Positions 1,021 to 54,579 are shown, numbered from the stretch's first letter. The stretch is 64,000 bases of DNA from Nitrosopumilus sp. (GCA_965214775.1 OZ243974.1:1280001-1344000), one strand, 5' to 3'. A program made the numbers and translations. Notes: generated by a model from the letters alone, not told the origin.

Positions 1021-1488
1021 GACGAGAAGAACGTCTGGGCGCTGCGCCTTGACGAGGAGGCGGAGATCAAAGATAAGAAGATACGGGAACTTCAAAAGGA
1101 GTTGGACGAGAAGAACGTCTGGGCGCTGCGCCTTGACGAGGAGGCGGAGATCAAAGATAAGAAGATACGGGAACTTCAAAAGGAGTTGGACGAGAAGAAC
1201 GTCTGGGCGCTGCGCCTTGACGAGGAGGCGGAGATCAAAGATAAGAAGATACGGGAACTTCAAAAGGAGTTGGACGAGAAGAGCGTCTGGGCGCTGCGCC
1301 TTGACGAGGAGGCGGAGATCAAAGATAAGAAGATACGGGAACTTCAAAAGGAGTTGGACGAGAAGAGCGTCTGGGCGCTGCGCCTTGACGAGGAGGCGGA
1401 GATCAAAGATAAGAAGATACGGGAACTTCAAAAGGAGTTGGACGAGAAGAGCGTCTGGGCGCTGCGCCTTGACGAGGAGGCGGAGATC
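1021..1488 (+). repeat. 84-bp coding tandem repeat (28 aa, DEKNVWALRLDEEAEIKDKKIRELQKEL), about 5.6 copies
   Basis: Units start at 1021, 1105, 1189, 1273, 1357 and 1441; nearly identical (AAC/AGC variants). Confidence 0.97.
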
Positions 1489-1864
1489 AGGGACAGGGAG
1501 GCGGAGATCAAAGATAAGAAGCTGGGTGACCTTCAGAGGGAGTTAGACTCTACCAAAAAGACCATAGAGAACAAAGAGTCAGAGATGGCAGATCTGCTAC
1601 AGAAGATGCATGTGCAGAACGACGAATTTGAGGAGATCAGGCAGTCAGTCCTGTTCAAAACTGCATCAGGTCTTGCCAGAAAACTGGACAAGTTGTTCCC
1701 GCAGAATAGCAAAAGGGGCGAGATGTTCAGATTGTCCAAGGCATTGTTTGACATAGTCCAAAACGACGGATATGGGGCCCTTCTGAGAGCCTTTAGGGAG
1801 AAATGGCGCAGCAGATCCGAATCCCCTCCCCCCGAAGACACCAGCATCAGTTATGAAAAGACCA

Positions 1865-1980
1865 GGCAGCATCCTGATGACGCGTCTGCTGCCGACTCTG
1901 CAGAGCAGGCAGAGCAGTAGCAGGCGTCGATCAGGGGGCAGCATCCTGATGACGCGTCTGCTGCCGACTCTGCAGAGCAG
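1865..1980. repeat. 44-bp direct repeat flanking a 28-bp insert (period 72)
   Basis: ggcagcatcctgatgacgcgtctgctgccgactctgcagagcag at 1865-1908 and 1937-1980; the insert carries the TAG. Confidence 0.9.
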
Positions 1981-16960: not shown

Positions 16961-17150
16961 GTCTTCCCAAAAATTCCCCGTAAAACGGTTCCAAACTTGA
17001 CATAATTCGGACTATAGCAACGAGCAGAAATAATTGAGGTTTTTTACGTGTAGTTATGACCTACTTTGACTCAAAGACTTCTGCCCGTTGCTATATGCTG
17101 CCTGCAGATCCGCCTGCACCACACCCCAAGTCGTGTACGTCTGGGAAGAC
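16961..17150. mobile_element. MITE A (GTCTTCCCA ends) with nested MITE B
   Basis: gtcttcccaaa...tctgggaagac; internal ccccgtaaaacggttcca and gcctgcagatcc shared with other copies. Confidence 0.75.
17015..17093. mobile_element. MITE B, 79 bp, IS630-related
   Basis: TIR tagcaacgagcagaa / ttctgcccgttgcta; TA duplication; one end resembles the IS630 left end at 19451. Confidence 0.9.
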
Positions 17151-17246
17151 TGATCTTCAGGTACGAGTTTACGGGATAACTATCGTGACTGTAATATGTC
17201 GTAAATGCGGACGTCTGGGAAGACTGATCTTCAGGTGCGAGTTTAC
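17137..17246. repeat. Isolated repeat-spacer-repeat unit (36+38+36 bp)
   Basis: acgtctgggaagactgatcttcaggtRcgagtttac at 17137-17172 and 17211-17246 (1 mismatch). Confidence 0.92.
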
Positions 17247-17324
17247 CCCTCACCTGAGTACGATGTGGCAGGCGTGATCATGAAGACTCCAGTCAGTAGT
17301 GTCGCCTGAGGGGTAAACTCTTGC
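17235..17324. mobile_element. MITE H, about 90 bp
   Basis: gagtttacccctca / tgaggggtaaactc; diverged inverted copy at 17935-18025. Confidence 0.7.
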
Positions 17325-17930
17325 GCCTCTGACTGCCGATGACCTGGTAGTGATCGGCAGGGGCCTCAAGTACCAAGAAACGTCCGATTTTATCAAGAAT
17401 GAGACCCTGACTGCGAGCCATTCTGAGCCCGGCCACTCCAGCCAGCAGACAATCATGACCGCCATTAACCTCAAGCGGAGGATGGACGAGACCGAGTCCG
17501 AGGATGGCGCCCATATCCCCAGCAGGTTCCTAGATGAGGAGGGCGGCTGCAGCATGCATCCTGACAGGCCAGGGGTGTGCTATCTCTACATGTTCTTCTC
17601 GTGGCTCGAAAACGAGCAGGCCAGGGCGCGTGTACACGCCATGTGCCAGTTCACAGGCGACTGCCCCGGGTTCTACCTGGCAGACTCTGTTGATCCGATG
17701 ATGAGGGAGCTCGGTGGTGAGGACTCCAAGATTGTCTATGACTATACGATGGGGGTTGTCGCCTAATTCCACCTGCCGAACTCAATCCGCACGTTTTTCT
17801 GAATCTCCGCCATTTTTGCGCGCCTAGTCTGGATAACATCGTATGATTTTCAGAAATTCTGATGACTTGGGCGACAACCCCTATACGATGAGATCCGGCC
17901 AGACGGTACGCGAGAGCTTTGGCGCCGTGT
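17325..17930 (+). pseudogene. YkgJ-like Cys-cluster protein remnant, interrupted by MITE D
   Basis: GCSMHPDRPGVCYLY, DCPGF; start lost. Confidence 0.55.
17752..17881. mobile_element. MITE D
   Basis: Near-identical to 15568-15697; 9-bp TSD tatacgatg. Confidence 0.92.
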
Positions 17931-17934
17931 CCTT

Positions 17935-18025
17935 GTAAGAGTTTGCACCCTAGGCGGCGCTGCAGATCATGGTCTTGATGGCCATGCCCTTCACACCGTA
18001 TCTTCAGGAGGGGGTGAACTCTTGC
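17935..18025. mobile_element. MITE H, inverted copy
   Basis: gtaagagtttgcacc...ggtgaactcttgc. Confidence 0.6.
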
Positions 18026-18038
18026 GGGCACGCTGCTT

Positions 18039-18617
18039 GTGCATAGTACCAACATCAAAAAATGGAATATGATTTTGACACATCATGCCTATTTCGCCAA
18101 AAAAATATTCCATTTTCAGCTGCACGCACTACAGTTCTTATATTGTCCTATTGTGTTATTACTTGTACTGGCACGTAAGAAAATACCCAACATAGATCCA
18201 TTTCGTTATATTCGAAAATCCGATACAGCAAAGCCATTTCAAAACGAACTTCAAAAAATCAATCATGTAACACTTGCAAATATCATCAAAGACAATAAAG
18301 ACAAAACGCATGTGATTGTGTATACCCGTGGCAGACATGTTTTTGCATTTTTGATTTTTGATGATGTCGGAACACACTTTCATCTAAACTTGGTTGAGAC
18401 TAACAGAATTCCTGAATCAAAAACGGTAAGAAGGCCAGGAACTAAACTGATAAAATATGTGGAGATGATTTCCACAAACTACGGTTATGGGAAAATCACA
18501 GTTACAGCACTAGAGGATCTAACTCCCTTCTACGAACAAATGGGATATTCCATATCTGGTTCAATGAAGACTGATCCGACATATGGAAATGTGATAGAAA
18601 TGTACAAGGATCTCTAG
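18039..18617 (+). CDS. GNAT-family N-acetyltransferase (true start probably near 18160)
   Basis: RRPGTKLIKYVE (motif A-like), ITVTAL...FYEQMGY (motif B). Confidence 0.7.
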   Translation: MHSTNIKKWNMILTHHAYFAKKIFHFQLHALQFLYCPIVLLLVLARKKIPNIDPFRYIRKSDTAKPFQNELQKINHVTLANIIKDNKDKTHVIVYTRGRHVFAFLIFDDVGTHFHLNLVETNRIPESKTVRRPGTKLIKYVEMISTNYGYGKITVTALEDLTPFYEQMGYSISGSMKTDPTYGNVIEMYKDL

Positions 18618-18629
18618 CTGGGTACGGGG

Positions 18630-18678
18630 CAACTCATCACTGCCAGCCAGGCCCGGGTTGGGCGCGCATAACTGTGAT
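18630..18678. repeat. 49-bp GC-rich direct repeat, copy 1
   Basis: caactcatcactgccagccaggcccgggttgggcgcgcataactgtgat, identical at 19299-19347. Confidence 0.95.
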
Positions 18679-18715
18679 TTTCATGTCTAGTCGGCAAGTG
18701 GTGGTGGCCTCGCAT

Positions 18716-18946
18716 CTAGCTGGTAACCAGCGTGGGAGTTTTACTGCTGGCCTGCATCCTGCCTGTATTTATTATGGGCATCTCTGGCAATTCTTCGAGT
18801 TCTGTTATCATCTGTTGTATTATTGCAACTGTTCGCAATCTGGATTCTAGAAATTCCGAGTAGTTCATGCTTTTAGAGGCAGCTAGCATTGATATTGCCT
18901 CATCTAGCTCTGCGCTCAATGTTATGGTTCGTCTTACTTTAGTCAT
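18716..18946 (-). CDS. Ribbon-helix-helix-like DNA-binding protein
   Basis: VRRTITLSAELDEAI...NYSEFLE pattern. Confidence 0.65.
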   Translation of the reverse strand: MTKVRRTITLSAELDEAISMLAASKSMNYSEFLESRLRTVAIIQQMITELEELPEMPIINTGRMQASSKTPTLVTS

Positions 18947-19061
18947 ACTATGATGTGAGCGTTATTGGTTTTAAAGAAATAAAATTAACTACTAAACTTT
19001 ATAACTACCTGAGTATATATCAGCAATATTATGAAGAATTTTGAAATGGCGTGTGAAATCA

Positions 19062-19220
19062 ATGGCCCAACTTAACGCAAACATATCCTCAGAATTAGAC
19101 AAAGAATTCCGAGAAACGGTGTATAAAAAAAAGGGACTAAAGCGAGGAGTTTTGCTGGAATCTCTTGAAGAGGCCATAAAGCTTTGGATACTTGAACAAA
19201 AAAATAAGGAGCAAGGATAG
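19062..19220 (+). CDS. Ribbon-helix-helix-like protein, 52 aa (absent from the ORF track)
   Basis: MAQLNANISSELDKEFRETVYKKKGLKRGVLLESLEEAIKLWI, translated by hand. Confidence 0.7.
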   Translation: MAQLNANISSELDKEFRETVYKKKGLKRGVLLESLEEAIKLWILEQKNKEQG

Positions 19221-19298
19221 CTAGAAATCTTTTTTCGGCAAAACTTTGGAGATTTTGTATGTGGCTGGATCCCTTGATAAGAGTCTGGGCGTGCGGGA

Positions 19299-19347
19299 CA
19301 ACTCATCACTGCCAGCCAGGCCCGGGTTGGGCGCGCATAACTGTGAT
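19299..19347. repeat. 49-bp GC-rich direct repeat, copy 2
   Basis: Identical to 18630-18678. Confidence 0.95.
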
Positions 19348-19450
19348 GTAACCATATGTGTCTCAAAAACAAAATTCAGATGGTGCCAAAATAAATTGCG
19401 ATGCAAACAAACAGACGCTATATGAAATCTTATCTGTATCCTGTGATATA

Positions 19451-20558
19451 TAGCAATGATCAGAAGTCTTTGAGCCAAAACAGGATCATTCGAAAAGTAT
19501 ATGGATCGCCTAACCGGCGCAATGGCATGGCAAAAGAAACGGACAAAAGCCTGTCAGAGGCCATACGCAAGGAAAGGGATGCCAAAGTCTACAAGAAGAT
19601 CATGGCATTGATGTTTGTGCTAGAAGACGACGTGGGTGTGCCCGAGACTGCAAGAAGGGTCCGGTGCAGCGAGAATTCCGTGCGCAACTGGCTGGCGAGG
19701 TTTTCGGAGGACGGCATAGACGGTCTCCGGGATCTTCCTCGTTCCGGATGCAGACCAATGGTGGACAGAGAAAGTATTGCCGCCATAATGGACCTGTCCA
19801 CTGCATGCAAAAGTACTGATGTCATGACGGTGCGCGATGACATAAGGGATGCCACCGGGATAGAATACAGCACAGAACATGTCCGAAAATTGATGCGCCA
19901 GCACGGCCTGTCGCGCCGCAAGGTGCAAAACATACATGTCAACCATGCCACCCCAAGCTCCGTATACTCGTGGCAGCGGTATCTTGAAAACGTGCGGATT
20001 CCGTGCCTGAAAAACGACGGTTTTACGCTGGTGTCATCTGATGAGTCATTCTTCGTGCAGGGCGCATACGACAGATACGTGTGGGATCCGGTCGGCACCA
20101 GAAGTGTGGCATCGTATTCGGGGGACCACACAAAGGTGGCCGTGTTTGGAAGCATCGCAGAAGACGGCAGAAGGCTGTTCAGGACGTTTACGGGATCGTT
20201 TACGCCGGTGCAGTTCATAGAATGTCTGGAGGCGTTGCGCGCCAAGTTTGGCAGGGTTGCTGTCTTTTGTGACAGGTGGAGCGTGCACAGATCTACTGAT
20301 GTCGCAAAATATCTGGCGGGCCATCCCGATGTCAGGCTGATAATGATCCCGAAAGGATCGCCGTACCTCAATATCGTGGAAGAATGCTGGAACCTAGGCA
20401 AGCATTTTGTTTTCAGGGGGATAGTGTACAGAAGGATCAGCGAGCTGCGGCACACCATATCCGAGTATTACAGGACGGTGTCATTTGCCCACCTTTGCAT
20501 GTACAAGTACATTTACAGATCGCCGGTCAAAGCCCTCAATTACTTGTGACCGTTGCTA
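19451..20558 (+). mobile_element. IS630-family element
   Basis: Ends tagcaatgatca / tgaccgttgcta, flanked by TA. Confidence 0.88.
19527..20549 (+). CDS. IS630 transposase
   Basis: HTH (VRNWLARF...GIDGL.DLPRSG), SDES, CDRWSVH, SPYLNIVEECW. Confidence 0.9.
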   Translation: MAKETDKSLSEAIRKERDAKVYKKIMALMFVLEDDVGVPETARRVRCSENSVRNWLARFSEDGIDGLRDLPRSGCRPMVDRESIAAIMDLSTACKSTDVMTVRDDIRDATGIEYSTEHVRKLMRQHGLSRRKVQNIHVNHATPSSVYSWQRYLENVRIPCLKNDGFTLVSSDESFFVQGAYDRYVWDPVGTRSVASYSGDHTKVAVFGSIAEDGRRLFRTFTGSFTPVQFIECLEALRAKFGRVAVFCDRWSVHRSTDVAKYLAGHPDVRLIMIPKGSPYLNIVEECWNLGKHFVFRGIVYRRISELRHTISEYYRTVSFAHLCMYKYIYRSPVKALNYL

Positions 20559-20595
20559 TAGGAAAGGATGTGTGTGTGACATGAATGTTAGTATT

Positions 20596-20727
20596 CAGTA
20601 GTTCCGATTGTGGCCTGAAAATAAAGCAAATTGACAGATTTTTATGATCATTTGGATCTATAGGGGGTACTTTTAGCAATTTCTCCATGACAAAAAGTGG
20701 CAGGGCCGCTCAAAAGCCGTACGGACA
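20596..20727 (+). mobile_element. Truncated left end of the ISH3 element
   Basis: Nearly identical to 46587-46720, cut by MITE F. Confidence 0.9.
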
Positions 20728-20870
20728 CAGAGAGTTGATTCGAAATTAGCAGATTCAGATTATTTGTAGACGAATTTGCACAAAATAGCTCAAAACACCA
20801 ACAAAATACAAGTTATCTGTGAAATTACTTGAAAAATTCATACGGTCTCTAATTTCGGATCACCTCTCTG
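20728..20870. mobile_element. MITE F, about 143 bp, CAG-ended
   Basis: cagagagttgattcgaaattag / ctaatttcggatcacctctctg; inverted copy at 30881-31021. Confidence 0.8.
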
Positions 20871-21366
20871 AGGCCGAATTTCGGATACTTTTCACTTAGC
20901 TGCTCAAACTAGAAGGTTTATTGGTTCCCACAAGTGATGAGATTTCTTCTCAGATTAAATACTGTTTATGGCAAAGATGTCTTTTGAGTAAATAGAGGCG
21001 ATCTACTGATGGCCTGCACACAACTTCTGTGAGACGCATCTTGACAAACAGATGTTTTTAGAATACGATGAAGACGGGCAGATTCTGGGGTTTGTTCAAA
21101 GTCAATTGCGCAGGTTAGTCCAACTTGGCTTTCAGTCATGACCAAACATTCTCGCAACAAAATTGATGTCTGCATGTTACAACAATCCACAGTGACGATC
21201 AAAAATTCTTTAACTCATGTGATGTGGGCCACTAGGTGGATACTTTTTGTTGCTGAATAACTTCTAATCTACACCACAGCCTATTGTTTTCGTTTATGCA
21301 GTCTACTATGCTATTCTTTTTATGATTATGCGTGGAACCGGAAGGATAATTACTTCAAGTGCCTCG

Positions 21367-21555
21367 TTAGACTTTTTTTATTCTAAGAACTAGTTTAGCT
21401 TTTCTGAGCGGCAGATCATTTTTTCTGATGTATTGTACCATCTTTCCAACATCCTTAAGAATTGCGTCAATTTCATCACGTACGGGTTTTGACCTGTTTG
21501 GATACTGCTTTTTAAAATCTTTAGAAAAGGAAATGAGTTTTTTTGAGGTTGCCAT
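21367..21555 (-). CDS. Small basic hypothetical protein
   Basis: 62-aa ORF with plausible composition; no family recognised. Confidence 0.4.
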   Translation of the reverse strand: MATSKKLISFSKDFKKQYPNRSKPVRDEIDAILKDVGKMVQYIRKNDLPLRKAKLVLRIKKV

Positions 21556-21602
21556 TACTTGACTGAAGCGTGGAGCGCCTTTATAGCAGTTTCCACATCC
21601 GG

Positions 21603-22116
21603 GGCGTTGTCCGGAATCGTGATTTTAGGACGTGATTTCCGGGGAGATTTGTACAAAATCATGGCGCAATGACTGCAAACATAGAGACGAATCCGCACTC
21701 CGGCCCGCATTGTGTAGTTATGGCCCGTGTTTTGACGTCATACTGCATAGCATCCGCTAGCCGGACGATTCCACCGTACCGGCATTATGGATCCTAGCTG
21801 ACCAGATTGTAGCAGAATACCTTGAGGGTAAGCCTGAGCGACTGCATCGGAAGCGACATGGCGCGCACCGTGGAGTCAAACCTTGCCTTTATCGACGAGA
21901 AGGCCGACTCAACGAGGCTGCGCTGGTGGTACGTCTTCTCGAATCCCTCGGGGTCCTTTTTGTGCCATCTTAGCATCTTGGAGCGGGCGTTGAACCCGTG
22001 AACCGTATATCCTGTACGCGGACATATCACTGGGGTTCTGCCTCCGTCGGCTATGACCCTGCAGTTCTCATACGAGTCGTATGCGGCATCCAGGATCACG
22101 TGTCCTGTGCCGTTGG
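21603..22116 (-). mobile_element. Truncated copy (3' half) of the 1319-bp IS5-family element
   Basis: Near-identical to 26668-27181. Confidence 0.93.
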
Positions 22117-22323
22117 TTGCTGCTGCTGCTGCTGTCCGAGCAGTGTGTTTAGCCGCTCGATTTCTTTTTGCATCTGCTCTTTCTCTTTTTCAACTGTCTC
22201 CATCTTAGACTTCATGTGTTCAAACAGGCGGATCACGTCGGGAATGCTCCAGTCCACGTCAGTAATGTCAGAATCTCCGATCAATACCGGAAAGACAGAT
22301 CCAACGATCTTTATGTGTTGTGA

Positions 22324-22483
22324 TTCTTCCAAATAGCCTGCTGGTTGGAGGTGCTGCCCGGGTGACCTCCGGGGTTGCAAGATTCACGCCTGAGCTTCCA
22401 GAGCCTGACCTGTTACCCTGCAGGCAGCCCAGCCTGAATTGTTTCGAGTTTGGAGCCGTCTTGTGGGGAACTTCTGGGAAGAC
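22324..22483. mobile_element. MITE A containing a MITE J fragment
   Basis: ttcttccaaa...tctgggaagac; internal cttccagagcctgacctgttac. Confidence 0.65.
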
Positions 22484-22774
22484 TGATGTATTTCCAGAAC
22501 TAAGAAAATAGATTTAGAACTCATACAGAAAATAAAATCATGTATTTTAGTGACATAAAATTAATTTAATTTTGGCAAGTTTTAAGATCTTGTTAATTTA
22601 AATAAAGTTGTGTTTGACAGGACTGAGCGTGATTATCTTTGTGGAGGATTTCATCCTGGCAAAAATTGCTAACGTTAAATCCTTCATTCCACTAGAAAGA
22701 AACTTACCCTGTTGTATTCCTGTCTTTTGCTTATTCAATCCAAGCCGGAGGCTCTTTGCACCGTAGGCGCACAA

Positions 22775-22822
22775 CTTGTAAGTCTGACGTCATCATACTA
22801 GGAGGCTAAACTAATTCCGCCT
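22775..22822 (-). repeat. Degenerate duplicate of the tRNA-Gly 5' half (att-like)
   Basis: ctgacgtcat...ctaaactaattccgcct matches 16871-16912 with small indels. Confidence 0.8.
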
Positions 22823-22872
22823 AGCCAATTTTCAATAACCATGATTAAATATCTTAATTGGCAACTTGTATT

Positions 22873-23046
22873 ATGGATGCACGATGTCCTGAATGTGAGA
22901 AAGTTGCAGTTTTAGATGACGCAGTTACAAAAGTAAAATGCCCACACTGCAATTTTGAAGCAGACTATGAATCCTATCTGGAAATCATGAAGGATCAGGC
23001 TCTTAATATGGCATCTGACTATATTCCTGACAGGTCAGGACTTTGA
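22873..23046 (+). CDS. Small zinc-ribbon protein
   Basis: CPEC...CPHC. Confidence 0.7.
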   Translation: MDARCPECEKVAVLDDAVTKVKCPHCNFEADYESYLEIMKDQALNMASDYIPDRSGL

Positions 23047-23169
23047 TCACCAGTAATTCCCTTTATCAGAACAATCCAAGTGAGAGCCACAATTTGGACA
23101 GAACATGTGGCATGCCTGAATGTCTACCATCTCTTTTTCGCATCTGGGGCACGTGATGCTTTCTGCCAT
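23047..23169 (-). CDS. 40-aa zinc-finger micro-protein (absent from the ORF track)
   Basis: MAESITCPRCEKEMVDIQACHMFCPNCGSHLDCSDKGNYW. Confidence 0.75.
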   Translation of the reverse strand: MAESITCPRCEKEMVDIQACHMFCPNCGSHLDCSDKGNYW

Positions 23170-23245
23170 GTGACTATTCTGGGGAGTTCGGATTTAAAAA
23201 TAATGTCCAAAGGTTAATTAGTCGTTCAGCATTTTCTGGGAATGC

Positions 23246-23662
23246 TTGGCAAATTTCAAGTTGACAATATCAGACATTAAAGGAAAATCCGTCACAAAAG
23301 AACTCAAAGGCGTCGATGCAAATCCGCTGCTGGGGCTGGAATTGGGAAAAGAAGCTGATGCATCAATTGCTGGATTGAGCGGAAAACTAAAACTCACTGG
23401 AGGCAGCGACAAATCTGGCGTTCCAATGAGGAACGACATTCATGGCTCTGCCAGACAATATGTTCTCTTGTCAAAGGGCGTCGGATTGCAAGATGCAGAA
23501 ACCGGCCAAAGGGTCAGAAAGCTGATGAGGGGAAATACCATCTCTGAAGAAATCTACCAAGTCAACTGTAAATTCGATGGTGAATTGCCCGCAGCAGAAC
23601 AGACGCCTGCTGAAGAAGCCGAAAAATCTGAAGAAAACACCCCTGGAGAAAAAAAAGAATAA
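23246..23662 (+). CDS. rps6e: 30S ribosomal protein S6e
   Basis: LKLTGGSDKSGVPMR, RVRKLMRGNTI. Confidence 0.96.
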   Translation: MANFKLTISDIKGKSVTKELKGVDANPLLGLELGKEADASIAGLSGKLKLTGGSDKSGVPMRNDIHGSARQYVLLSKGVGLQDAETGQRVRKLMRGNTISEEIYQVNCKFDGELPAAEQTPAEEAEKSEENTPGEKKE

Positions 23663-23693
23663 CTTAACATATAACGATTCTACATTTTGACTC

Positions 23694-24956
23694 ATGCATT
23701 GGAGAGAAACGCTTCCCGACTGGTATGTAAAAAAATATGGTTATCAGCCTTGTATAAATATTGGAACTGCAGGACATGTTGATCACGGAAAAACGACTTT
23801 AATTCAGTCACTGACTGGTTCTTGGACTAGCGTCCATAGCCAGGAACTAAAACGTGGAATTACAATTAGAGTGGGCTATTCAGATGCAGCATTTTACAAA
23901 TGCAAAAAATGCGAAGAGCCGTTATGCTATTCAACAACTCCAAAATGCAACAACTGTGGAAAGGAAAGCGAACTGTCAAGAGTTGTAAGTTTTGTGGATA
24001 GCCCGGGACACGAAAGTTTGATGGCAAACATGCTTTCGGGATCTGCATTAATGGATGGCGCACTTTTGCTGGTTGCATCTAATGAGAAAGTTCCAAGACC
24101 CCAGACAAAAGAACACCTTTTGGCCCTTCAGACTTTGGGGATACGGCAAATCGTCGTTGCCCAGAACAAGGTTGACCTGCTAAGCTACAAAGAGGCCGTC
24201 TCTAATTACCGGGACATCTCAAAGTTTGTCAAAGGAACCCATGCATCCAAAGCTCCAGTAATTCCTATTTCTGCACAATCTGGCCTGAACATCGATGCGT
24301 TAATTGGAGCAATGGAAGACACCATCAAAACTCCAGAACGTGACGAAAAAAAAGACGCGGTAATGCACGTATTGCGCTCCTTTGATGTAAACAGACCGGG
24401 TACCAAATTAAAAGAAATCAAGGGAGGCGTCATTGGAGGAAGCTTGACGCAAGGAGTTTTTAATACAGGCGACGAAATTGAAATAAAACCGGGAATCTCA
24501 AATGAAAAAAAGAAGACCTACGAGCCGCTACAAACTGAAATTACCTCTTTGGGTACTGCAGCAGGAATCGTAGATTCTGTAAAACCTGGCGGATTAGTGG
24601 CAATTGGAACCAAACTAGATCCCTCCATGACGAGAAGTGACTCTTTTATTGGCTCTGTAATTGGAAAACCAGGAACGTTGCCTGAAAATTCAAAAAGTCT
24701 AAAACTTGAAGTCAGCCTGTTTGATTCTGCCGTAGGTACAACAGAAGACATCAAAGTCCAACCAATTCAATCAGGGGAATCGCTTCGACTAAACATTGGA
24801 ACTGCGCCGATCCTTGCCAAAGTCACAAAAACAAAATCCAAGAACATTGAACTAGAACTAAGAAGACCTGCCTGCATCTTTGAAGGTGGAAACGTGGCAA
24901 TCAGTAGAAGAATTTCTGAAAGATGGAGATTAATTGGTGCAGGAACAGTTGGTTGA
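23694..24956 (+). CDS. eif2g: Translation initiation factor 2 gamma
   Basis: GHVDHGKTT, RGITIRVGY, DSPGHE, NKVD, WRLIG. Confidence 0.97.
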   Translation: MHWRETLPDWYVKKYGYQPCINIGTAGHVDHGKTTLIQSLTGSWTSVHSQELKRGITIRVGYSDAAFYKCKKCEEPLCYSTTPKCNNCGKESELSRVVSFVDSPGHESLMANMLSGSALMDGALLLVASNEKVPRPQTKEHLLALQTLGIRQIVVAQNKVDLLSYKEAVSNYRDISKFVKGTHASKAPVIPISAQSGLNIDALIGAMEDTIKTPERDEKKDAVMHVLRSFDVNRPGTKLKEIKGGVIGGSLTQGVFNTGDEIEIKPGISNEKKKTYEPLQTEITSLGTAAGIVDSVKPGGLVAIGTKLDPSMTRSDSFIGSVIGKPGTLPENSKSLKLEVSLFDSAVGTTEDIKVQPIQSGESLRLNIGTAPILAKVTKTKSKNIELELRRPACIFEGGNVAISRRISERWRLIGAGTVG

Positions 24957-25317
24957 CGTAATTTGCGACACAAGTTTCTTGATTCATTTTGCTACGAAAA
25001 AAATCGTCAATATTGACAGTCTTGACGTTGAAATTGGCCAACTCTCGTTTTTAGTTCCCAATGTGGTCCGAAACGAACTGATCAAATTGCAACAAAACCC
25101 GACTAAAAAACAAGATATTGATCACACCCTGAATTTCATAAAAAAATTTCAAACCCTTGAAATTAACGGAACTTTTGCCGACAAGGAAATTTTGGATTAC
25201 ATTTCAAACAGCAATTCAATTGTGGCAACAATGGATAAAGAATTAAAAAGCCAAATCAAATCCAAGGGACGATCGGTCATGTCAGTTAACAACAATCGAA
25301 TTATTCTGGAATCTTAG
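24934..25317 (+). CDS. PIN-domain protein (Fcf1-like)
   Basis: CDTSFL, ADKEIL, VATMDKEL; conserved position after aIF2g; start may be 24949. Confidence 0.8.
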   Translation: MVQEQLVDVICDTSFLIHFATKKIVNIDSLDVEIGQLSFLVPNVVRNELIKLQQNPTKKQDIDHTLNFIKKFQTLEINGTFADKEILDYISNSNSIVATMDKELKSQIKSKGRSVMSVNNNRIILES

Positions 25318-25352
25318 AAAAATTTAACTTCTAGTATCCTTTTTTTATCTTA

Positions 25353-25808
25353 ATGACTAGTCTTACTTTGGAAAGCGATTCATTTGAAAATAACGGGATC
25401 ATCCCAAAAAAATTTGGATATAAAAATGGAAACACTAGCCCTTCTTTGAGAATATCGAACATTCCTGAAAATACCAAATCATTGGCACTTGTAATGGATG
25501 ATCCGGATGCAATGCAGGCTGTTGGAAAAGTGTGGGTACATTGGATACTGTATAACATTCCCACAAATTCGGTTTTTCAAGAAAATAAAATTCCTTCAGA
25601 GTGCATTGAAGGAAAAACCGACTTTGGAGATATAGGCTATGGCGGACCGGCTCCTCCTGACAAAGAACATACCTATGTTTTCAAATTATACGCACTGGAT
25701 AATGTCTTGAATTCAAGTGATCCCCTCTCAAAGGAGGAACTCGAAAAGTTAATGGACGGCCATATAATCTCTCAAGCAACCCTGCAAGGCAGATATTCTC
25801 CGCAATAG
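25353..25808 (+). CDS. YbhB/YbcL (PEBP) family protein
   Basis: DDPDA, WVHW, GYGGPAPP, HTYVFKLYAL. Confidence 0.92.
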   Translation: MTSLTLESDSFENNGIIPKKFGYKNGNTSPSLRISNIPENTKSLALVMDDPDAMQAVGKVWVHWILYNIPTNSVFQENKIPSECIEGKTDFGDIGYGGPAPPDKEHTYVFKLYALDNVLNSSDPLSKEELEKLMDGHIISQATLQGRYSPQ

Positions 25809-25822
25809 CCAGCAGACCGAAA

Positions 25823-25964
25823 CAGTAGCTCAAAATGTACACTCTGAATCCCAACTCTGAGATTGTGTCTTTGCCCATTCACAGCTCTGCACGCATGGGA
25901 TTCTGCATGCCAAGGTCCCACGAGACGGCGGCCACAAGTAACAGTGGCACATTTTCAACTACTG
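25823..25964. mobile_element. MITE K, 142 bp, ISH3-like CAGTA ends
   Basis: cagtagctcaaaatgtacact / agtggcacattttcaactactg; flanks cgaaa/ggaaa. Confidence 0.65.
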
Positions 25965-25998
25965 GGAAATGTACTCACTTTAAATCCACTTGGCAGAC

Positions 25999-26189
25999 CA
26001 GCCAAGTGAAATGTAAATGAGATTTGTTGTTTTGCCTTGCTATAGCAACGAGCAGAAATAATTGAGGTTTTTTACGTGTAGTTATGACCTACTTTGACTC
26101 AAAGACTTCTGCCCGTTGCTATATTGAGGCGTCGTACCCACTGCCCAGTCTTGTTTTTGCTCGATTTTTTGGCACGTTTTACTTGGCTG
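25999..26189. mobile_element. MITE I (CAGCC ends) with nested MITE B (26043-26121)
   Basis: cagccaagtgaaa / ttttacttggctg; 5-bp TSD CAGAC; uninterrupted copy at 52828-52938. Confidence 0.85.
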
Positions 26190-26667
26190 CAGACAGCATG
26201 AAATACATGAAATAATCAAATCAGTGATCGAACAAAAAAATAGTGACAAAAATCGAATCAACAAAAGAGAATGAGGAAGAAACAAAAAAGAAGGTCGACT
26301 CTGGCAAAAAACCAAGCTATAATTTTGCATGGCCGGAACAAAAGCAGAAAGAATCAAACCTACCCTGTGATTTGGTCTCGGATTTTTTTATTATGGTGTT
26401 TTAGTGGGATTGTCACCTAATTCGCCAGAACTCCTGAAAACCACTGAGATGTCAGTGGATCAGACGTGCAAAATGGCGGAAATTCAGAAAAACGTGCAGG
26501 TTGAGTCAAACAAGTCAGTACTTCCTAGGTGTACTTTTACAGGCACGGTAATTACGTAATTTGGAGAAGATCTTATGCGTAAACGAAGTTAGCGGCTATG
26601 GCGTGCCGGGTCTGCAAAAGCACATCTATAGCAACGAGCAGAAATAATTGAGGTTTTTTACGTGTAG

Positions 26668-27986
26668 GGCGTTGTCCGGAATCGTGATTTTAGGACGTGA
26701 TTTCCGGGGAGATTTGTACAAAATCATGGCGCAATGACTGCAAACATAGAGACGAATCCGCACTCCGGCCCGCATTGTGTAGTTATGGCCCGTGTTTTGA
26801 CGTCATACTGCATAGCATCCGCTAGCCGGACGATTCCACCGTACCGGCATTATGGATCCTAGCTGACCAGATTGTAGCAGAATACCTTGAGGGTAAGCCT
26901 GAGCGACTGCATCGGAAGCGACATGGCGCGCACCGTGGAGTCAAACCTTGCCTTTATCGACGAGAAGGCCGACTCAACGAGGCTGCGCTGGTGGTACGTC
27001 TTCTCGAATCCCTCGGGGTCCTTTTTGTGCCATCTTAGCATCTTGGAGCGGGCGTTGAACCCGTGAACCGTATATCCTATACGCGGACATATCACTGGGG
27101 TTCTGCCTCCGTCGGCTATGACCCTGCAGTTCTCATACGAGTCGTATGCGGCATCCAGGATCACGTGTCCTGTGCCGTTGGGAACCTGCGGTAGCAGCTC
27201 GTTACGGAACACCGGGGAATCATGGAATTCGCCCGGCGTCACCTCGCAGGCGGCAATCTTGCCGTGCGGGGCCAACAGTATGTGCAGCTTGGCAAACATC
27301 TGCCTGGATATGACGCCCTTCTTTGCGTCCTCCCATGTGTGGTATCTCATTATGGAGAAACCGCTAGAGTCGCCAAGCAACGTTCCCCTGGCGTCTGCGC
27401 CTGCCTGTTCTGAGAGTACCGATCTTAGCACCGACTTGTCCCAGGCAGCTATCCTTACGGCTGCATCATGCAGTGTCGACTTGGCCGGAACCTTTTTGAG
27501 CCCGTACATGTTAGTTGAACCAGGATTCGACTCCATGTATTCGACGTGTCTGCGATACGAGTTTCCGCGGTACTCCATGTCGAGTACGCACAGAAGATAG
27601 GGAATTTCATCCTCTTGCTCTGTGTTATGGAGGAGGGACAGGAGGATCTTGCGGATCTTTTTGATTCCGATGCCGCACCTCTTGCTGTCCTCTCTCCTTT
27701 TTTTCTCGTACTCGGCATAGTATTCCGGAGGTCTCGTGTACTCTGACTTTTTTTTCTTGCTGGTCTTGCTGGATTCCTTCTTGGATTCCTTCTTGGATTC
27801 CTTCTTGGATTCCTTCTTGGATTCCTTCTTGGATTCCTTCTTGGATTCCTTCTTGGATTCCTTCTTGTTGGTCTTTGATTTCATTGATACGGGGACGTCG
27901 ATCCTATGATCCATAAGGTTGTCGCATCCTGCGCTTATGATCTATAAGCTTATCGGTAGATTTCTGGAAAAATTCCGGACAACGCC
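26668..27986 (-). mobile_element. IS5-family (IS903/ISH1-like) element, 1319 bp
   Basis: TIR ggcgttgtccggaat; 9-bp TSD tacgtgtag at 26659-26667 and 27987-27995. Confidence 0.93.
26859..27914 (-). CDS. DDE transposase with N-terminal (KKES)8 repeat
   Basis: GDSSGF, KLHI, LDAAYDS, YHQRSLVESAFSSIK. Confidence 0.9.
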   Translation of the reverse strand: MDHRIDVPVSMKSKTNKKESKKESKKESKKESKKESKKESKKESKKESSKTSKKKKSEYTRPPEYYAEYEKKRREDSKRCGIGIKKIRKILLSLLHNTEQEDEIPYLLCVLDMEYRGNSYRRHVEYMESNPGSTNMYGLKKVPAKSTLHDAAVRIAAWDKSVLRSVLSEQAGADARGTLLGDSSGFSIMRYHTWEDAKKGVISRQMFAKLHILLAPHGKIAACEVTPGEFHDSPVFRNELLPQVPNGTGHVILDAAYDSYENCRVIADGGRTPVICPRIGYTVHGFNARSKMLRWHKKDPEGFEKTYHQRSLVESAFSSIKARFDSTVRAMSLPMQSLRLTLKVFCYNLVS

Positions 27987-28495
27987 TACGTGTAGTTATG
28001 ACCTGCTTTGACTCAAAGACTTCTGCCCGTTGCTATAGGAAGTACTGAAGTGGAACTAGGCGACAACCCCCTCCTAAAAAGACCAAAAACGACATAATAC
28101 GAGCCGGAAAAAGGGACAGGTTCAAGCATGCAGAACCAAACCAGTTGTGGGAGACTGACATTACATACGTCTGGTGTGGCATTGACGGCTGGTGCCACTG
28201 CTTTAACATAATTGACACATTCACCAGAAGGTGGATGGCATACGTCTTTGACACGCAGGCCACCGCATAGATAGCAGTTGAGTCACTGACAAAGGCAGTC
28301 TTTACAATCTCGGCAGACGAGGCACGCAGACTGCTGATCAGAAGTGACAACGGCGTCCAGTATGCGAGCCGCGGGTTCAAAGACAATATGAGGGCGCTTG
28401 TGGTAAGGCACAAGTACATCTGGCACAACACGCCCAAACAAAACGGACATGTCCAGTCCTTCCACAAGACCCTCAAAAGGGAGTACGTCTGGCCG

Positions 28496-28689
28496 CATGA
28501 CTTTGCCAGGTTCCAGTATGCAGAAGTCGTCATTCCAGTGCACCGCTCATCAGACTTTATGCGTAATCTACCTGAATGAGATGAATTTGTTCGTAATAAT
28601 CCCAGATCTGAGCCGATTACGCATAAAGTCTATCTTCTCAATCTTGATGCCCATGACTTTGCCAGGTTCCAGTATGCAGAAGTCGTCAT
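28496..28689. repeat. Repeat-spacer-repeat unit (38+35+38 bp); spacer split by MITE C
   Basis: catgactttgccaggttccagtatgcagaagtcgtcat at 28496-28533 and 28652-28689. Confidence 0.92.
28552..28631. mobile_element. MITE C, 80 bp, ISL2-like IS5 derivative
   Basis: TIR agactttatgcgtaatc / gattacgcataaagtct; 3-bp TSD ATC. Confidence 0.92.
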
Positions 28690-28890
28690 GGCAGAGGCGT
28701 TTGAGGATTACAACTCCAATAGGATCCACTCTGCGCTGGGATGCCATACATACATGCATGACCAAAAAGACAGAGTACGTAAAATCAAAGGGCAAGATGA
28801 TCACAAGAATTTGTCTAGATTGTCGGCTCGGTTCAGTTGACAACTTGAACCGGCCACTCTGGCAAATTATGAAATGTCATTTGACATATT

Positions 28891-28931
28891 TCGCCAAATA
28901 GCGACTCGCCAAATAGCGACTCGCCAAATAG
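28891..28931. repeat. 15-bp tandem repeat, 2.7 copies, next to an IS end
   Basis: tcgccaaatagcgac repeated. Confidence 0.9.
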
Positions 28932-28932
28932 T

Positions 28933-30417
28933 AGACTTTATGCGTAATTGGAAAATCTGATCTAAAAATACAACACAACAGATCATGGTTTGCATACCTA
29001 CAACCATAAAGATCAGTAATGGTTCTCTAACGGTATGGGTTCAGATGTCGAGCTTGTCCAAACACTGCAAGAGCAAAACAAGAGTTTGGTAGAGCAAAAC
29101 GAGCATCTGAAGAGCAGGCTTGCGTTTGAGGACTCGCTGTGGCAGTCCGAAGAAAACAAGACAAAAAGAGTCGTGCGCGGCGGGACGCCTCTGCGGATGC
29201 ACGCAATCGAGGTTGCAGACGGCATAATCGGCGATCCGGTGCGCCTTTGCAACGTCACGGGATGCACAAAGGAGTCATTTGAGATCATACTGGAGCGCTT
29301 TACGGAAGAAGTCATGGACGACGAGGACAGGCCCCTGTTCTGGGAGGACGACGTAAGAGGCGGCGATGCCGGAAACCGGTGCAAGCTGTACATCAGGCAC
29401 GCGCTGCTTGCAGTACTCATGAGCATAAGGACCAAGGCAACGCAGCATCATCTGGCCGCGACATTTGACGTCGACCAGTCCACAATGTCCAGGTACCTCC
29501 GGTACGGTGCCGTGTTACTGCGCCAGCTCCTGCCTGCCTCCGAAAAGCTAACAAGCATCATCTGCAAGACCCCGGCAGGCAAGCTGGAGGAGGTGCTGAT
29601 CCCAAAAAAGACGCTCCTGATTGACGGCACCCTGACTCCGGTAGACAGGCCCGGGGACAGGACCGCAAGAAAGACCAGATACTCGGGAAGAAAAAAGCGG
29701 CACATGTTCAACACGATAATTACCTCGAACCTGGACGGCCTCATACTGCACTGCGGCAAGACTGTGGACGGAAGCGTCAACGACAAGGGCGTGATGAACG
29801 CAGGGGGCGGCCCGGACTTTGGAAGGCACACCGGATCAATGAGGAATGCAAAAAACGCAGACGATCCGGAAGAGGCGTTTGTGATTTACAGCGACCTGGG
29901 ATTTGAGGGCATTCAAAAGATGCTTCCGGGCGCCATACACAGGCAGCCCCCAAAGAAGCCCAGGGACGGGGATCTTACTGCAACGCAAAAGAGGCGCCGC
30001 AAGCAGATAAGCAGGGTCCGCGTCAGAGTGGAGCACCACATAGGGCGGCTCAAAAGATATGGCATTCTTACCATGCCGTTTGGCGGAACTGCCAAGGATC
30101 TAAACTATTTCATGCAGATAATCACGGGTCTTGAGAACCTCAAGACTATGCTGAAAAGGAAAAAACACTATGGCCAGCTGCTGCAGCAGCTGCATCTGCT
30201 GCCAGACACATGACATACGGCGGCACGGACCGCCATTCTTTCTGACTTGTCAAAGGGGCACATTGCCGTGCTGCATGGTTGCGCACGTTCTTTTGGCGCA
30301 ACTGGCTTTTACGTGCGTCATGACACGAGATGCATGCGGTAATTTGATCCGATCAGCGCATTTGCGTTTGGAAAAGCCTACGGAATTTTTAATCACGGTC
30401 GATTACGCATAAAGTCT
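28933..30417 (+). mobile_element. IS5-family (ISL2-like) element, copy 2
   Basis: Same TIRs as 3291-4825; near-identical after about 29118; no matching TSD. Confidence 0.92.
29035..30213 (+). CDS. IS5/ISL2-like DDE transposase
   Basis: Almost identical to 3392-4621 apart from the N-terminus. Confidence 0.9.
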   Translation: MGSDVELVQTLQEQNKSLVEQNEHLKSRLAFEDSLWQSEENKTKRVVRGGTPLRMHAIEVADGIIGDPVRLCNVTGCTKESFEIILERFTEEVMDDEDRPLFWEDDVRGGDAGNRCKLYIRHALLAVLMSIRTKATQHHLAATFDVDQSTMSRYLRYGAVLLRQLLPASEKLTSIICKTPAGKLEEVLIPKKTLLIDGTLTPVDRPGDRTARKTRYSGRKKRHMFNTIITSNLDGLILHCGKTVDGSVNDKGVMNAGGGPDFGRHTGSMRNAKNADDPEEAFVIYSDLGFEGIQKMLPGAIHRQPPKKPRDGDLTATQKRRRKQISRVRVRVEHHIGRLKRYGILTMPFGGTAKDLNYFMQIITGLENLKTMLKRKKHYGQLLQQLHLLPDT

Positions 30418-30725
30418 ATCATGCATATCCATACGACATCGGCAATAATAAAAGCAGCATGCCCAACTATCAATACTGGAGATGAGAAAAGATGGCCCTG
30501 CGTAATTCCTCCAACCAAAAAGCGTTCAAGAACACGTTTGCGCCCCACATAAGAAATGAGACGCTGACAGTAGTTGAACACATGATAAAAACACCCCCGC
30601 AGCGGTCATGGCGACGGATCAACCCCTTCTTTTTCATGTGCTTGGCGCACTAGTAGTTGAATGGGGTTCTCACCAATGTGCTTTGCGCACTGATGGATGA
30701 CTACAGCTTTTGGTTTGTCAAGACC

Positions 30726-30837
30726 AAGAGGAAAGAAACCGTCTGCGGTGACTCACCTCCTGCATGTCTATGCCGATAATTACGTCACCGTTAATCACGA
30801 AGAGGAAAGAAACCGTCTGCGGTGACTCACCTCCTGC
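30726..30837. repeat. Isolated repeat-spacer-repeat unit (38+36+38 bp)
   Basis: aagaggaaagaaaccgtctgcggtgactcacctcctgc at 30726-30763 and 30800-30837. Confidence 0.95.
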
Positions 30838-30880
30838 CCCGCCACCCACCTATCATCTGGGAGGATATGGCCTGACCGCA

Positions 30881-31021
30881 CTGAGATGATCCGAAATTAG
30901 AAACCGTACGAATCTTTCATGTAATTTCACAGATAATCTGTATTTTGTTGATGTTTTGAGCTGATTTACGCAAATTTATTTACAAATAATCAGAATCTGC
31001 TAATTTCAAATCAACTCTCTG
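30881..31021. mobile_element. MITE F, inverted copy
   Basis: Reverse complement aligns with 20728-20870. Confidence 0.8.
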
Positions 31022-31128
31022 GGGGCGAGATTGTGGCGGCGGCACAGTATGCCGTCTCGATGTCGGCGTTAAGGTACTCCATGACTATCTCTACCTTGTC
31101 CTGCGTACTCTATATTTTCTTGGTCATA
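31022..31128 (-). pseudogene. IS3-family OrfA HTH remnant
   Basis: MTKKI*STQDKVEIVMEYLN...LCRRHNLAP, with a stop and a frameshift. Confidence 0.5.
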
Positions 31129-31335
31129 TTTGCGATTCGACCTCCTGACTCAAAAAATATGCGGACAAAAGCATTCCTATTTTATGTGGTCCTCACCAGG
31201 TTGCATGCGAGCTTGTCATGATGGCTCTATAAGAAGAAATCTTGCAGAGTACGGATTGCCGGCCCGCCGCCGTAGGGCCGTGATGACTTTTGCGGGTTTA
31301 CATTTGCGTCTACTGAACAGTTATTTGGATGTGTT

Positions 31336-53260: not shown

Positions 53261-54579
53261 GGCGTTGTCCGGAATTTTTCCAGAAATCTACCGATAAGCT
53301 TATAGATCATAAGCGCAGGATGCGACAACCTTATGGATCATAGGATCGACGTCCCCGTATCAATGAAATCAAAGACCAACAAGAAGGAATCCAAGAAGGA
53401 ATCCAAGAAGGAATCCAAGAAGGAATCCAAGAAGGAATCCAAGAAGGAATCCAAGAAGGAATCCAAGAAGGAATCCAGCAAGACCAGCAAGAAAAAAAAG
53501 TCAGAGTACACGAGACCTCCGGAATACTATGCCGAGTACGAGAAAAAAAGGAGAGAGGACAGCAAGAGGTGCGGCATCGGAATCAAAAAGATCCGCAAGA
53601 TCCTCCTGTCCCTCCTCCATAACACAGAGCAAGAGGATGAAATTCCCTATCTTCTGTGCGTACTCGACATGGAGTACCGCGGAAACTCGTATCGCAGACA
53701 CGTCGAATACATGGAGTCGAATCCTGGTTCAACTAACATGTACGGGCTCAAAAAGGTTCCGGCCAAGTCGACACTGCATGATGCAGCCGTAAGGATAGCT
53801 GCCTGGGACAAGTCGGTGCTAAGATCGGTACTCTCAGAACAGGCAGGCGCAGACGCCAGGGGAACGTTGCTTGGCGACTCTAGCGGTTTCTCCATAATGA
53901 GATACCACACATGGGAGGACGCAAAGAAGGGCGTCATATCCAGGCAGATGTTTGCCAAGCTGCACATACTGTTGGCCCCGCACGGCAAGATTGCCGCCTG
54001 CGAGGTGACGCCGGGCGAATTCCATGATTCCCCGGTGTTCCGTAACGAGCTGCTACCGCAGGTTCCCAACGGCACAGGACACGTGATCCTGGATGCCGCA
54101 TACGACTCGTATGAGAACTGCAGGGTCATAGCCGACGGAGGCAGAACCCCAGTGATATGTCCGCGTATAGGATATACGGTTCACGGGTTCAACGCCCGCT
54201 CCAAGATGCTAAGATGGCACAAAAAGGACCCCGAGGGATTCGAGAAGACGTACCACCAGCGCAGCCTCGTTGAGTCGGCCTTCTCGTCGATAAAGGCAAG
54301 GTTTGACTCCACGGTGCGCGCCATGTCGCTTCCGATGCAGTCGCTCAGGCTTACCCTCAAGGTATTCTGCTACAATCTGGTCAGCTAGGATCCATAATGC
54401 CGGTACGGTGGAATCGTCCGGCTAGCGGATGCTATGCAGTATGACGTCAAAACACGGGCCATAACTACACAATGCGGGCCGGAGTGCGGATTCGTCTCTA
54501 TGTTTGCAGTCATTGCGCCATGATTTTGTACAAATCTCCCCGGAAATCACGTCCTAAAATCACGATTCCGGACAACGCC
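53261..54579 (+). mobile_element. IS5-family (IS903/ISH1-like) element, 1319 bp, copy 2
   Basis: Same TIRs and length as 26668-27986; 9-bp TSD gcagactct. Confidence 0.95.
53333..54388 (+). CDS. DDE transposase with (KKES)8 repeat
   Basis: Protein identical to 26859-27914. Confidence 0.9.
   Translation: MDHRIDVPVSMKSKTNKKESKKESKKESKKESKKESKKESKKESKKESSKTSKKKKSEYTRPPEYYAEYEKKRREDSKRCGIGIKKIRKILLSLLHNTEQEDEIPYLLCVLDMEYRGNSYRRHVEYMESNPGSTNMYGLKKVPAKSTLHDAAVRIAAWDKSVLRSVLSEQAGADARGTLLGDSSGFSIMRYHTWEDAKKGVISRQMFAKLHILLAPHGKIAACEVTPGEFHDSPVFRNELLPQVPNGTGHVILDAAYDSYENCRVIADGGRTPVICPRIGYTVHGFNARSKMLRWHKKDPEGFEKTYHQRSLVESAFSSIKARFDSTVRAMSLPMQSLRLTLKVFCYNLVS

Follow-up and report, generated by a model that had tools for sequence, protein, structure and literature searches.

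Repeat–insert–repeat units scattered over a Nitrosopumilus chromosome as probable scars of off-target CRISPR spacer integration

How does a chromosome come to carry, at many separate places, a short piece of ordinary DNA that is duplicated around an insert of the size of a spacer from a CRISPR array? The question is raised by a window of 64,000 nt, bases 1,280,001–1,344,000 of the closed 2,833,656-bp chromosome of Nitrosopumilus sp. (G000; 47.1% G+C), in which a preliminary description had drawn attention to four such units and attributed them to a Cas1-type integrase. The analysis of this window, of the entire genome and of relatives within the genus supports that attribution: with a probability of roughly 0.8 we regard the units as scars left where a CRISPR Cas1-Cas2(-Cas4) integrase, acting off target, carried out full-site integration of a spacer into non-CRISPR DNA.

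A direct-repeat search of the window (distance ≤300) lists nine repeat families and recovers all four sites among them, and the geometry proposed for them is correct in each case. Unit 1 consists of 36-bp copies with one mismatch (35/36 identical) around an insert of 38 bp, giving a period of 74; unit 3 has exact copies of 38 bp (41 bp with one mismatch), an insert of 36 bp and again a period of 74; and unit 4, with exact copies of 44 bp and an insert of 28 bp (44+28+44 by identity), has a period of 72. Unit 2 is built from 38-bp copies which, as they stand, are separated by a 118-bp interval at a period of 156. Once an 80-bp miniature inverted-repeat transposable element (MITE) and its 3-bp ATC duplication are taken out, an insert of 35 bp and a period of 73 remain. 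This MITE has inverted ends and makes 3-bp target duplications, as an alignment of seven copies demonstrates. The duplicated sequences of the four units have no mutual relation, and the earlier statement that this sequence differs from site to site extends to the genome as a whole, where it is unique to each locus. For two of the sites the repeat had also been claimed to be pre-existing local DNA. At unit 2 this is evident from transposase paralogs near 70.1 kb and 109.0 kb of the genome, which carry a 35–36-bp target once and no insert; at unit 1 it can be followed in part only, in that two paralogs have the copy and a ~90-bp element as a single piece. Short dyads within the repeats, to which attention had been called as well, are present in the sequence, and no evidence was found that they matter.

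Table 1. Positions of the four units and their parts, counted from the first base of the window.
Feature	Position	Strand	Remark
Unit 1, target copy 1 (36 bp)	17137-17172	.	35/36 against 17211-17246
Unit 1, insert (38 bp)	17173-17210	.	source not found in genome
Unit 1, target copy 2	17211-17246	.	continues into dispersed ~90-bp element, 17235-17328
Unit 2, target copy 1 (38 bp, transposase-gene sequence)	28496-28533	.	single in two paralogous copies
Unit 2, insert	28534-28651	.	original 35 bp = 28534-28551 + 28635-28651, split by MITE and ATC duplication
80-bp MITE with terminal inverted repeats, later insertion in unit 2 insert	28552-28631	.	>90 genome copies
Unit 2, target copy 2	28652-28689	.	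direct repeat of 28496-28533
Unit 3, target copy 1 (38 bp, intergenic)	30726-30763	.	direct-repeat search
Unit 3, insert (36 bp)	30764-30799	.	no genome match
Unit 3, target copy 2	30800-30837	.	direct-repeat search
Unit 4, copy 1 (44 bp by identity)	1865-1908	.	last 9 bp may be insert-flank microhomology
Unit 4, insert (28 bp by identity)	1909-1936	.	TAG ending sulfotransferase-like open reading frame at 1920
Unit 4, copy 2	1937-1980	.	direct-repeat search

Are these four sites part of a larger class? A seed-and-extend scan of the whole 2.83-Mb genome for direct repeats 20–400 bp apart resulted in 502 refined pairs, 122 of which are isolated. Among these isolated two-copy repeats, 49 have a period of 71–76 (5, 10, 14, 12, 6 and 2 at periods 71, 72, 73, 74, 75 and 76, respectively), and every other period is represented by four pairs at most, an excess well beyond chance. 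Before counting, a six-copy 34+41 family internal to an insertion sequence (IS), two coding tandem arrays (90701 and 1630738) and a unit at 2288313 were excluded, the last of these because its 'insert' is, in paralogs, native DNA continuous with the left flank; the entries 1266843 and 1266906 were merged as one locus with three repeats. The final set comprises 48 loci and window unit 2, thus 49, and most of the statistics below cover the 48. Their period is 72.7 ± 1.4, and 33 of them form a core class with a duplication of 35–38 bp and an insert of 33–39 bp. The modal duplication is 36 bp and the modal insert 36–38 bp, within a full range of inserts from 28 to 45 bp. The lengths thus gather genome-wide in one sharp peak at 36–37/36–38, not in the broad spread that had been named as a sign against integration.

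The two copies of a unit are identical in 41 of the 48 loci, differ at one position in six and at three positions in one. A looser scan (at least 29/34 matches) brought up 14 extra candidates, only two of which are plausible decayed units, so that the units appear to be either young or rapidly lost. The other 12 were rejected as members of the 75-bp IS-internal family (six), short-period tandem artefacts (five) and a coding repeat (one).

That the units are insertions accompanied by a duplication of the target can be read from sites that lack them. Each unit was compared with its 200-bp flanks against the genome, and for 13 of the 48 there are paralogs (1–20 per unit), either copies of an IS or duplicated genes, with left flank, a single target and right flank contiguous and the insert missing; not one filled paralog was found for these 13. 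Together with unit 2, which adds two empty paralogs, empty sites are available for 14 of 49 loci, the remaining 35 being without a comparable paralog, and the alignments of three examples are clean. Paralogs were used for this purpose because 20 relatives, queried with 951 bp around unit 3, yielded a shared MITE piece but no orthologous DNA. Assembled contigs of four runs from two studies were also compared with window positions 17000–31300. Of 92 joints and 19 indels, 15 and 12, respectively, were listed; none of these is a 73–74-nt skip at a unit, and none of the listed contig pieces bridges a unit. As IS and MITE paralogs crowd the alignments, this comparison is neutral on polymorphism.

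Where do the inserts come from? In 19 of the 48 loci the insert matches another locus of the same genome over 26–39 nt at 92–100% identity. These sources are scattered round the chromosome, six of them being multi-copy IS or MITE sequences, and the inserts match such scattered loci and not one another. The concern that they might have arisen by slippage from adjacent DNA is therefore settled by their distant sources and by the empty sites. None of the 78 canonical spacers in the two arrays of the genome has a self match longer than 17 nt, a contrast to be expected from autoimmunity, which rules self spacers out of a functional array and leaves them free to persist between non-cognate 'repeats'. 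A search with 406 canonical spacers from this genome and four relatives against 5.6 Mb yielded no source match, the only match being a unit in the relative G009 that is described below. The inserts of units 1 and 3 have no exact match in viral_contigs, and that of unit 3 has none in metagenome_contigs either, exact matching being a weak test. The insert of the unit at 2776475 opens with 11 nt that equal the end of the 37-nt repeat of the main array and was considered as a repeat remnant; its source is not a repeat remnant, and the likeness is put down to coincidence.

The lengths of duplication and insert call for comparison with the CRISPR loci of the genome itself. The host is an archaeon, with archaeal L6 and L24 genes adjoining the cas genes, and cas1, cas2 and cas4, for which the preliminary description had suggested to search, are all encoded. 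The single Cas1 homologue lies within a type I-B operon at 2.425–2.434 Mb (cas8b-like, cas7, cas5, cas3, cas6b, cas1, cas2, cas4), in which the frames of cas1, cas2, cas4, cas6b, cas3, cas5 and cas7 are open; the adaptation module is intact. No cas gene is found near the units. The main array adjoins this operon and has 68 identical 37-nt repeats with spacers of 33–39 nt, mode 35 (37+35). An orphan array at G000:C1:1977219-1978062 has 12 repeats of 36 nt, the last of them degenerate, and spacers of 36–39 nt (36+37); the genes upstream of it were checked and are not cas, nor do any cas genes lie beside it. The proposed comparison of lengths thus ends in agreement, with the peak of the units coinciding with the repeat and spacer lengths of two canonical arrays. 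A canonical array is characterized by a common repeat, a leader and neighbouring cas genes, and the units have their own repeat at each locus instead.

Some features of these arrays are observations in their own right. Where the main array borders on the cas genes (G000:C1:2424440-2424900), its spacers are irregular, with lengths of 57, 29, 30 and 50 nt, and one of them holds a degenerate repeat. The repeat family of the orphan array also adjoins Cas4g/Cas1g-Cas2 in the relative G009 and a 557-aa Cas1 open frame (type unassigned) in the relative G099, and it makes up a 6-repeat orphan array in G078, a relative without Cas1. Moreover, the I-B operon of G000 and the Cas4g/Cas1g locus of G009 both stand beside the ribosomal-protein L24/S4e/L6 operon (regions G000:C1:2434000-2437700 and G009:C1:1983500-1994600), a neighbourhood that is thus occupied by different CRISPR-Cas types in the two genomes.

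Further evidence comes from the sites that were attacked. At the 96 outer ends of the 48 units, base composition departs from background at positions −4 to +7 only (p down to 4e-5) and no longer does so by +8. The motif has G/C at −4 to −2 and few A at −1, followed by G1, Y2, G4, G5, A6 and A7. A weight matrix derived solely from unit ends assigns 4.66 bits to the I-B leader-repeat junction. With this score the junction belongs to the top 0.093% when all genome positions of the two strands are ranked, and it leads the 68 repeat junctions; where the orphan array meets its leader, the same matrix gives nothing conspicuous (top 19%). As a description of the ends, GTCGTA, with which the I-B repeat begins, takes 12th place among 4096 hexamers. 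A biochemical precedent exists for Pyrococcus furiosus, whose Cas1-Cas2 in vitro also uses non-CRISPR sites by paired attacks on opposite strands one repeat length apart, according to the portion of the report by Grainy et al. (2019; PMC6698737) that deals with such sites. The same portion describes a G at the attack site and enrichment of G1, T2, A6 and C/G at −3 (PMC6698737), a preference that the junction bias of the units echoes.

Units of this kind were also sought elsewhere in the genus. Samples of 400 kb were taken from each of seven genomes, with the whole-genome rate used for G000. Among genomes with Cas1, G009 has 10 units per 400 kb (periods 71–74), G000 7.3, G039 two (period 69, with an array of its own of 36+35) and G099 one. 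Among those without Cas1, G002 and G078, the latter retaining an orphan 36-nt array, have one unit each, and G010 and G098 have none. The density of units is higher in the Cas1-positive group (one-sided Mann-Whitney p = 0.027, for a small number of genomes that are kin).

The relative G009 possesses two arrays, one of 36-nt repeats beside a Cas4g/Cas1g fusion and Cas2 and one of 30-nt repeats that adjoins a different Cas1. The ten units of this genome all follow the 36+37 geometry and none the 30+36 one, and their ends score z = 5.2 with the matrix from G000. One insert is identical over 35 nt to part of a spacer of 40 nt in the canonical 36-nt-repeat array (G009:C1:1872101-1872208 and C1:1995542). 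For a random self-derived fragment to come from this spacer with such boundaries, the chance is estimated to be a few per thousand; that one protospacer was captured twice is the simpler reading. In another relative, G092, a 66-kb stretch (G092:C1:1416863-1482301) contains three Cas1 hits whose open frames measure ~410 aa and which may be casposases or extra adaptation modules.

Together with the geometry, the junction motif and the overlap of insert and spacer in G009 strengthen the earlier proposal of a Cas1-type integrase. How could the scars have formed? The integrase would bind a prespacer of ~36–38 bp, often cut from its own chromosome and frequently from IS or MITE copies. The two 3'-OH ends of this prespacer would attack opposite strands of ordinary DNA ~36 bp apart, at junctions that loosely resemble the leader-repeat junction, G/C-rich upstream and continuing with G-Y-N-G-G-A-A. 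Gap filling would then duplicate the 36 bp between the cuts and leave target, insert and target at a period of ~73. Self-derived inserts between such new 'repeats', which differ from the cognate one, would not arm interference and would therefore be tolerated, while self spacers in true arrays would be lethal and hence absent there; later on, selection would remove most hits in intact genes.

Such selection is in fact visible in the present distribution of the units. Only 19 of 48 lie in frames of at least 200 codons, compared to 70% of random positions (p = 1e-5). Periods divisible by three, which preserve the frame, are found in 8 of these 19 and in 4 of the 29 units outside such frames (p = 0.03). 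Unit 4 is an in-frame addition of 72 bp, and its TAG interrupts a frame that has 1064 codons without one copy and the insert and 167 with them. The truncated sulfotransferase-like open reading frame also contains an 84-bp tandem repeat (window 1021-1489; 5.6 copies, 99% identity), which encodes a coiled-coil-like unit of 28 residues.

The units are also unevenly distributed. Eight loci fall within 50 kb from 1,266,242 (expected 0.86), a hot spot that spans G000:C1:1266242-1311000, includes window positions 1-31000 and does not follow repeat density (Spearman −0.13). The genes of this region comprise functions in surface glycosylation (sulfotransferase-like, AglB/STT3), eIF2-gamma and several IS elements. 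The hot spot also holds, 13 kb before the window, the locus with three repeats and two inserts (G000:C1:1266835-1267014). Its second insert is 100% identical to an IS sequence with 12 copies, and because integration took place the second time 3 nt inside the first insert, the new repeat starts with GTT. This locus is a nascent, growing array.

Several findings weigh against spacer integration by Cas1-Cas2. When duplication and insert are added together, the total varies less than the two lengths do separately (r = −0.92), and to our knowledge such a constant sum is no described trait of Cas1-Cas2. In four units the duplications extend to 43–46 bp and the inserts shrink to 28–32 bp; in these the insert starts with the same 6–9 nt as the flank that follows the second copy, for which 0.02 units are expected by chance. 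One of them, unit 849741, has a source that differs from the insert at two of the nine microhomology positions, which is how correction of a base-paired spacer end to the target sequence would look. The resident 37+35 is a poorer match to the modal 36+37 than are the orphan array and the array beside the fusion Cas1 of G009, and no remnant of a matching Cas4/Cas1 fusion gene was found in G000. Beyond length, the interior of the duplicated targets bears no likeness to either canonical repeat (z = −1.3 and 1.6), and two Cas1-negative relatives each keep one unit in their 400 kb. The 19 self sources are without a clear flanking motif or a consistent side that would point to a protospacer adjacent motif (PAM); TTN stands on one side in 7 of 19, a weak signal (expected 2.6, p = 0.009), and orienting the units by their better end reveals no one-sided PAM pattern. 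Finally, the G+C content is 53% for inserts without a self source, 47% for self-derived inserts, 42% for I-B spacers and 47% for the genome.

Could a process without Cas1 have produced the units? A nascent end might switch by microhomology, copy ~36 nt ectopically and return ~36 nt behind its point of departure, thereby adding ~73 nt. Such templated insertion would account for the constant sum with its compensating parts, for the four units with microhomology between insert and flank, including the differing positions in unit 849741, and for the units in relatives without Cas1. Still, we consider it unlikely. No polymerase process with two ~36-nt rulers is known, the lengths agree with those of the repeats and spacers in the CRISPR arrays of this genome, and the junction bias matches a target junction of Cas1-Cas2. 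Moreover, 33 of the 48 units have no extension of the duplication beyond chance, and in G009 an insert overlaps with a canonical spacer. As to the compensation itself, short duplications can be explained by boundary mismatches, which leave the period unchanged, and extensions of +1 to +3 by chance.

Another integrase or mobile element is a much poorer candidate, be it a casposase, some transposase that duplicates a very long target, or a family of tiny non-autonomous elements. Insertions with target-site duplications in a genome rich in IS and MITE sequences would seem to suggest it, and a casposase relative had been mentioned in the preliminary description. It finds no support in the genome, whose only Cas1 homologue sits in the I-B operon, and casposon target duplications measure ~14–15 bp. 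Neither do the inserts look like a family of elements, as they are all different and 19 copy assorted chromosomal loci, and the MITE in unit 2 makes an ordinary 3-bp duplication. Chance, local replication slippage or an assembly artefact, to which one might turn because slippage can yield two-copy repeats and no listed contig piece bridges a unit, is refuted for practical purposes by the single sharp period peak, the distant sources and clean empty sites, the selection signatures, and a genome that is one closed 2.83-Mb contig with the same sequence in contigs of runs from two studies.

If off-target integration by a CRISPR integrase is accepted, which module was the agent? Like the involvement of Cas1-Cas2 itself, the choice is one that we infer from sequence comparison. 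The resident I-B Cas1-Cas2-Cas4 is, at somewhat better than even odds, the probable agent, given that it is the only module present, that the units are young and that the junction logo points to it. A little short of even odds, the units might stem from a lost Cas4/Cas1-fusion module of the type that serves 36-nt repeats in relatives; the geometry and the likeness to G009 argue for it, and the orphan array alone would remain of it. In that case the scars would be a dated fossil record of a lost immune module. A broader synthesis can be offered only tentatively and is, as a whole, rather doubtful: in wild archaea of this genus the integrase might routinely write spacer-sized DNA, own and foreign, into ordinary sites, seeding arrays and breaking or extending genes, with the second end joined by base pairing to the target flank. 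Such pairing would explain the constant sum of ~73 nt.

How do these scars compare with known systems? Their geometry is 36+37, as opposed to 28+33 in E. coli. Neo-CRISPR loci arising from off-target integration by the type I-E Cas1-Cas2 of E. coli were reportedly described by Nivala, Shipman and Church in 2018 (Nat Microbiol). The units share with them the spacer-sized insert, the repeat-sized duplication of ordinary DNA, the dispersed occurrence and a site that can be reused to grow a small array. They differ in being wild, fixed events of an archaeon instead of products of Cas1-Cas2 overproduction with supplied oligonucleotides, in their number (49 loci in one genome), in the many self-derived inserts and in the constant-sum tail with microhomology. 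Passages of papers citing the E. coli work state that off-target integration there can spawn new arrays, and a passage of a citing preprint calls the natural evidence, from two other species, only circumstantial.

With the P. furiosus system, as far as the cited portion of its description goes (PMC6698737), the units have in common an archaeal integrase and the preference at the junction, here G1, Y2, G4, A6, A7 and G/C at −4 to −2. The events described there took place on plasmids in vitro with a spacing of 30 bp, whereas those reported here happened in vivo, are inherited and have a spacing of ~36 bp; a mid-repeat A-rich motif mentioned in that portion (PMC6698737) has no counterpart in the unit interiors. 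Canonical arrays and the virus-borne or orphan mini-arrays treated in part of PMC8616872 resemble the units in the geometry of repeat, spacer and repeat and in the single spacer, but according to that part the mini-arrays carry the cognate repeat of the host, in contrast to the local sequence that serves as its own 'repeat' at each locus here. The ectopic acquisition reported for Streptococcus thermophilus and S. mutans (PMC7999890, PMC7316486) likewise takes place away from the leader-proximal repeat; there, 'ectopic' refers to the inside of an array at a cognate repeat, unlike the non-CRISPR DNA of the units.

Among the papers covered by the literature search, none describes a wild genome in which such sites are numerous. 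The phenomenon is already known in E. coli and in vitro; the present case draws its interest from the number of events, from their occurrence in nature and from a length rule that lacks an explanation. Off-target integration has been proposed as a birth route of new CRISPR arrays and as a hidden cost of the adaptation module, on evidence that has so far rested on Cas1-Cas2-overproducing E. coli and on test-tube work. This genome offers 49 mapped natural events, for which empty sites and source loci are available along with a target logo, a hot spot, a nascent array of three repeats and traces of selection, and its relative G009 adds a higher density of units and a direct link to a canonical spacer. 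The specificity of a natural CRISPR integrase, its sampling of self and non-self and its mutational burden thereby become measurable, and a rule of length compensation is exposed that is still unexplained.

Some further structures with a similar appearance were left out of the unit counts. A repeated IS-like element contains 34+41 structures of period 75 (G000:C1:113943, 228016, 794568, 1521943, 1531675 and 1590841), and a dispersed element contains 33–39+43–46 structures of period 79–82 (G000:C1:885706, 903893, 1943907, 2105962, 1523218 and 2276086). Both could be old units spread by transposition, or else internal duplications. The window itself holds additional tandem repeats: 12-bp repeats in 8.2 copies occur in inverted orientation at 27770-27867 and 53380-53477, the former within an open reading frame with a DDE transposase domain, and an 18-bp repeat is present in 10 copies at 61851-62031.

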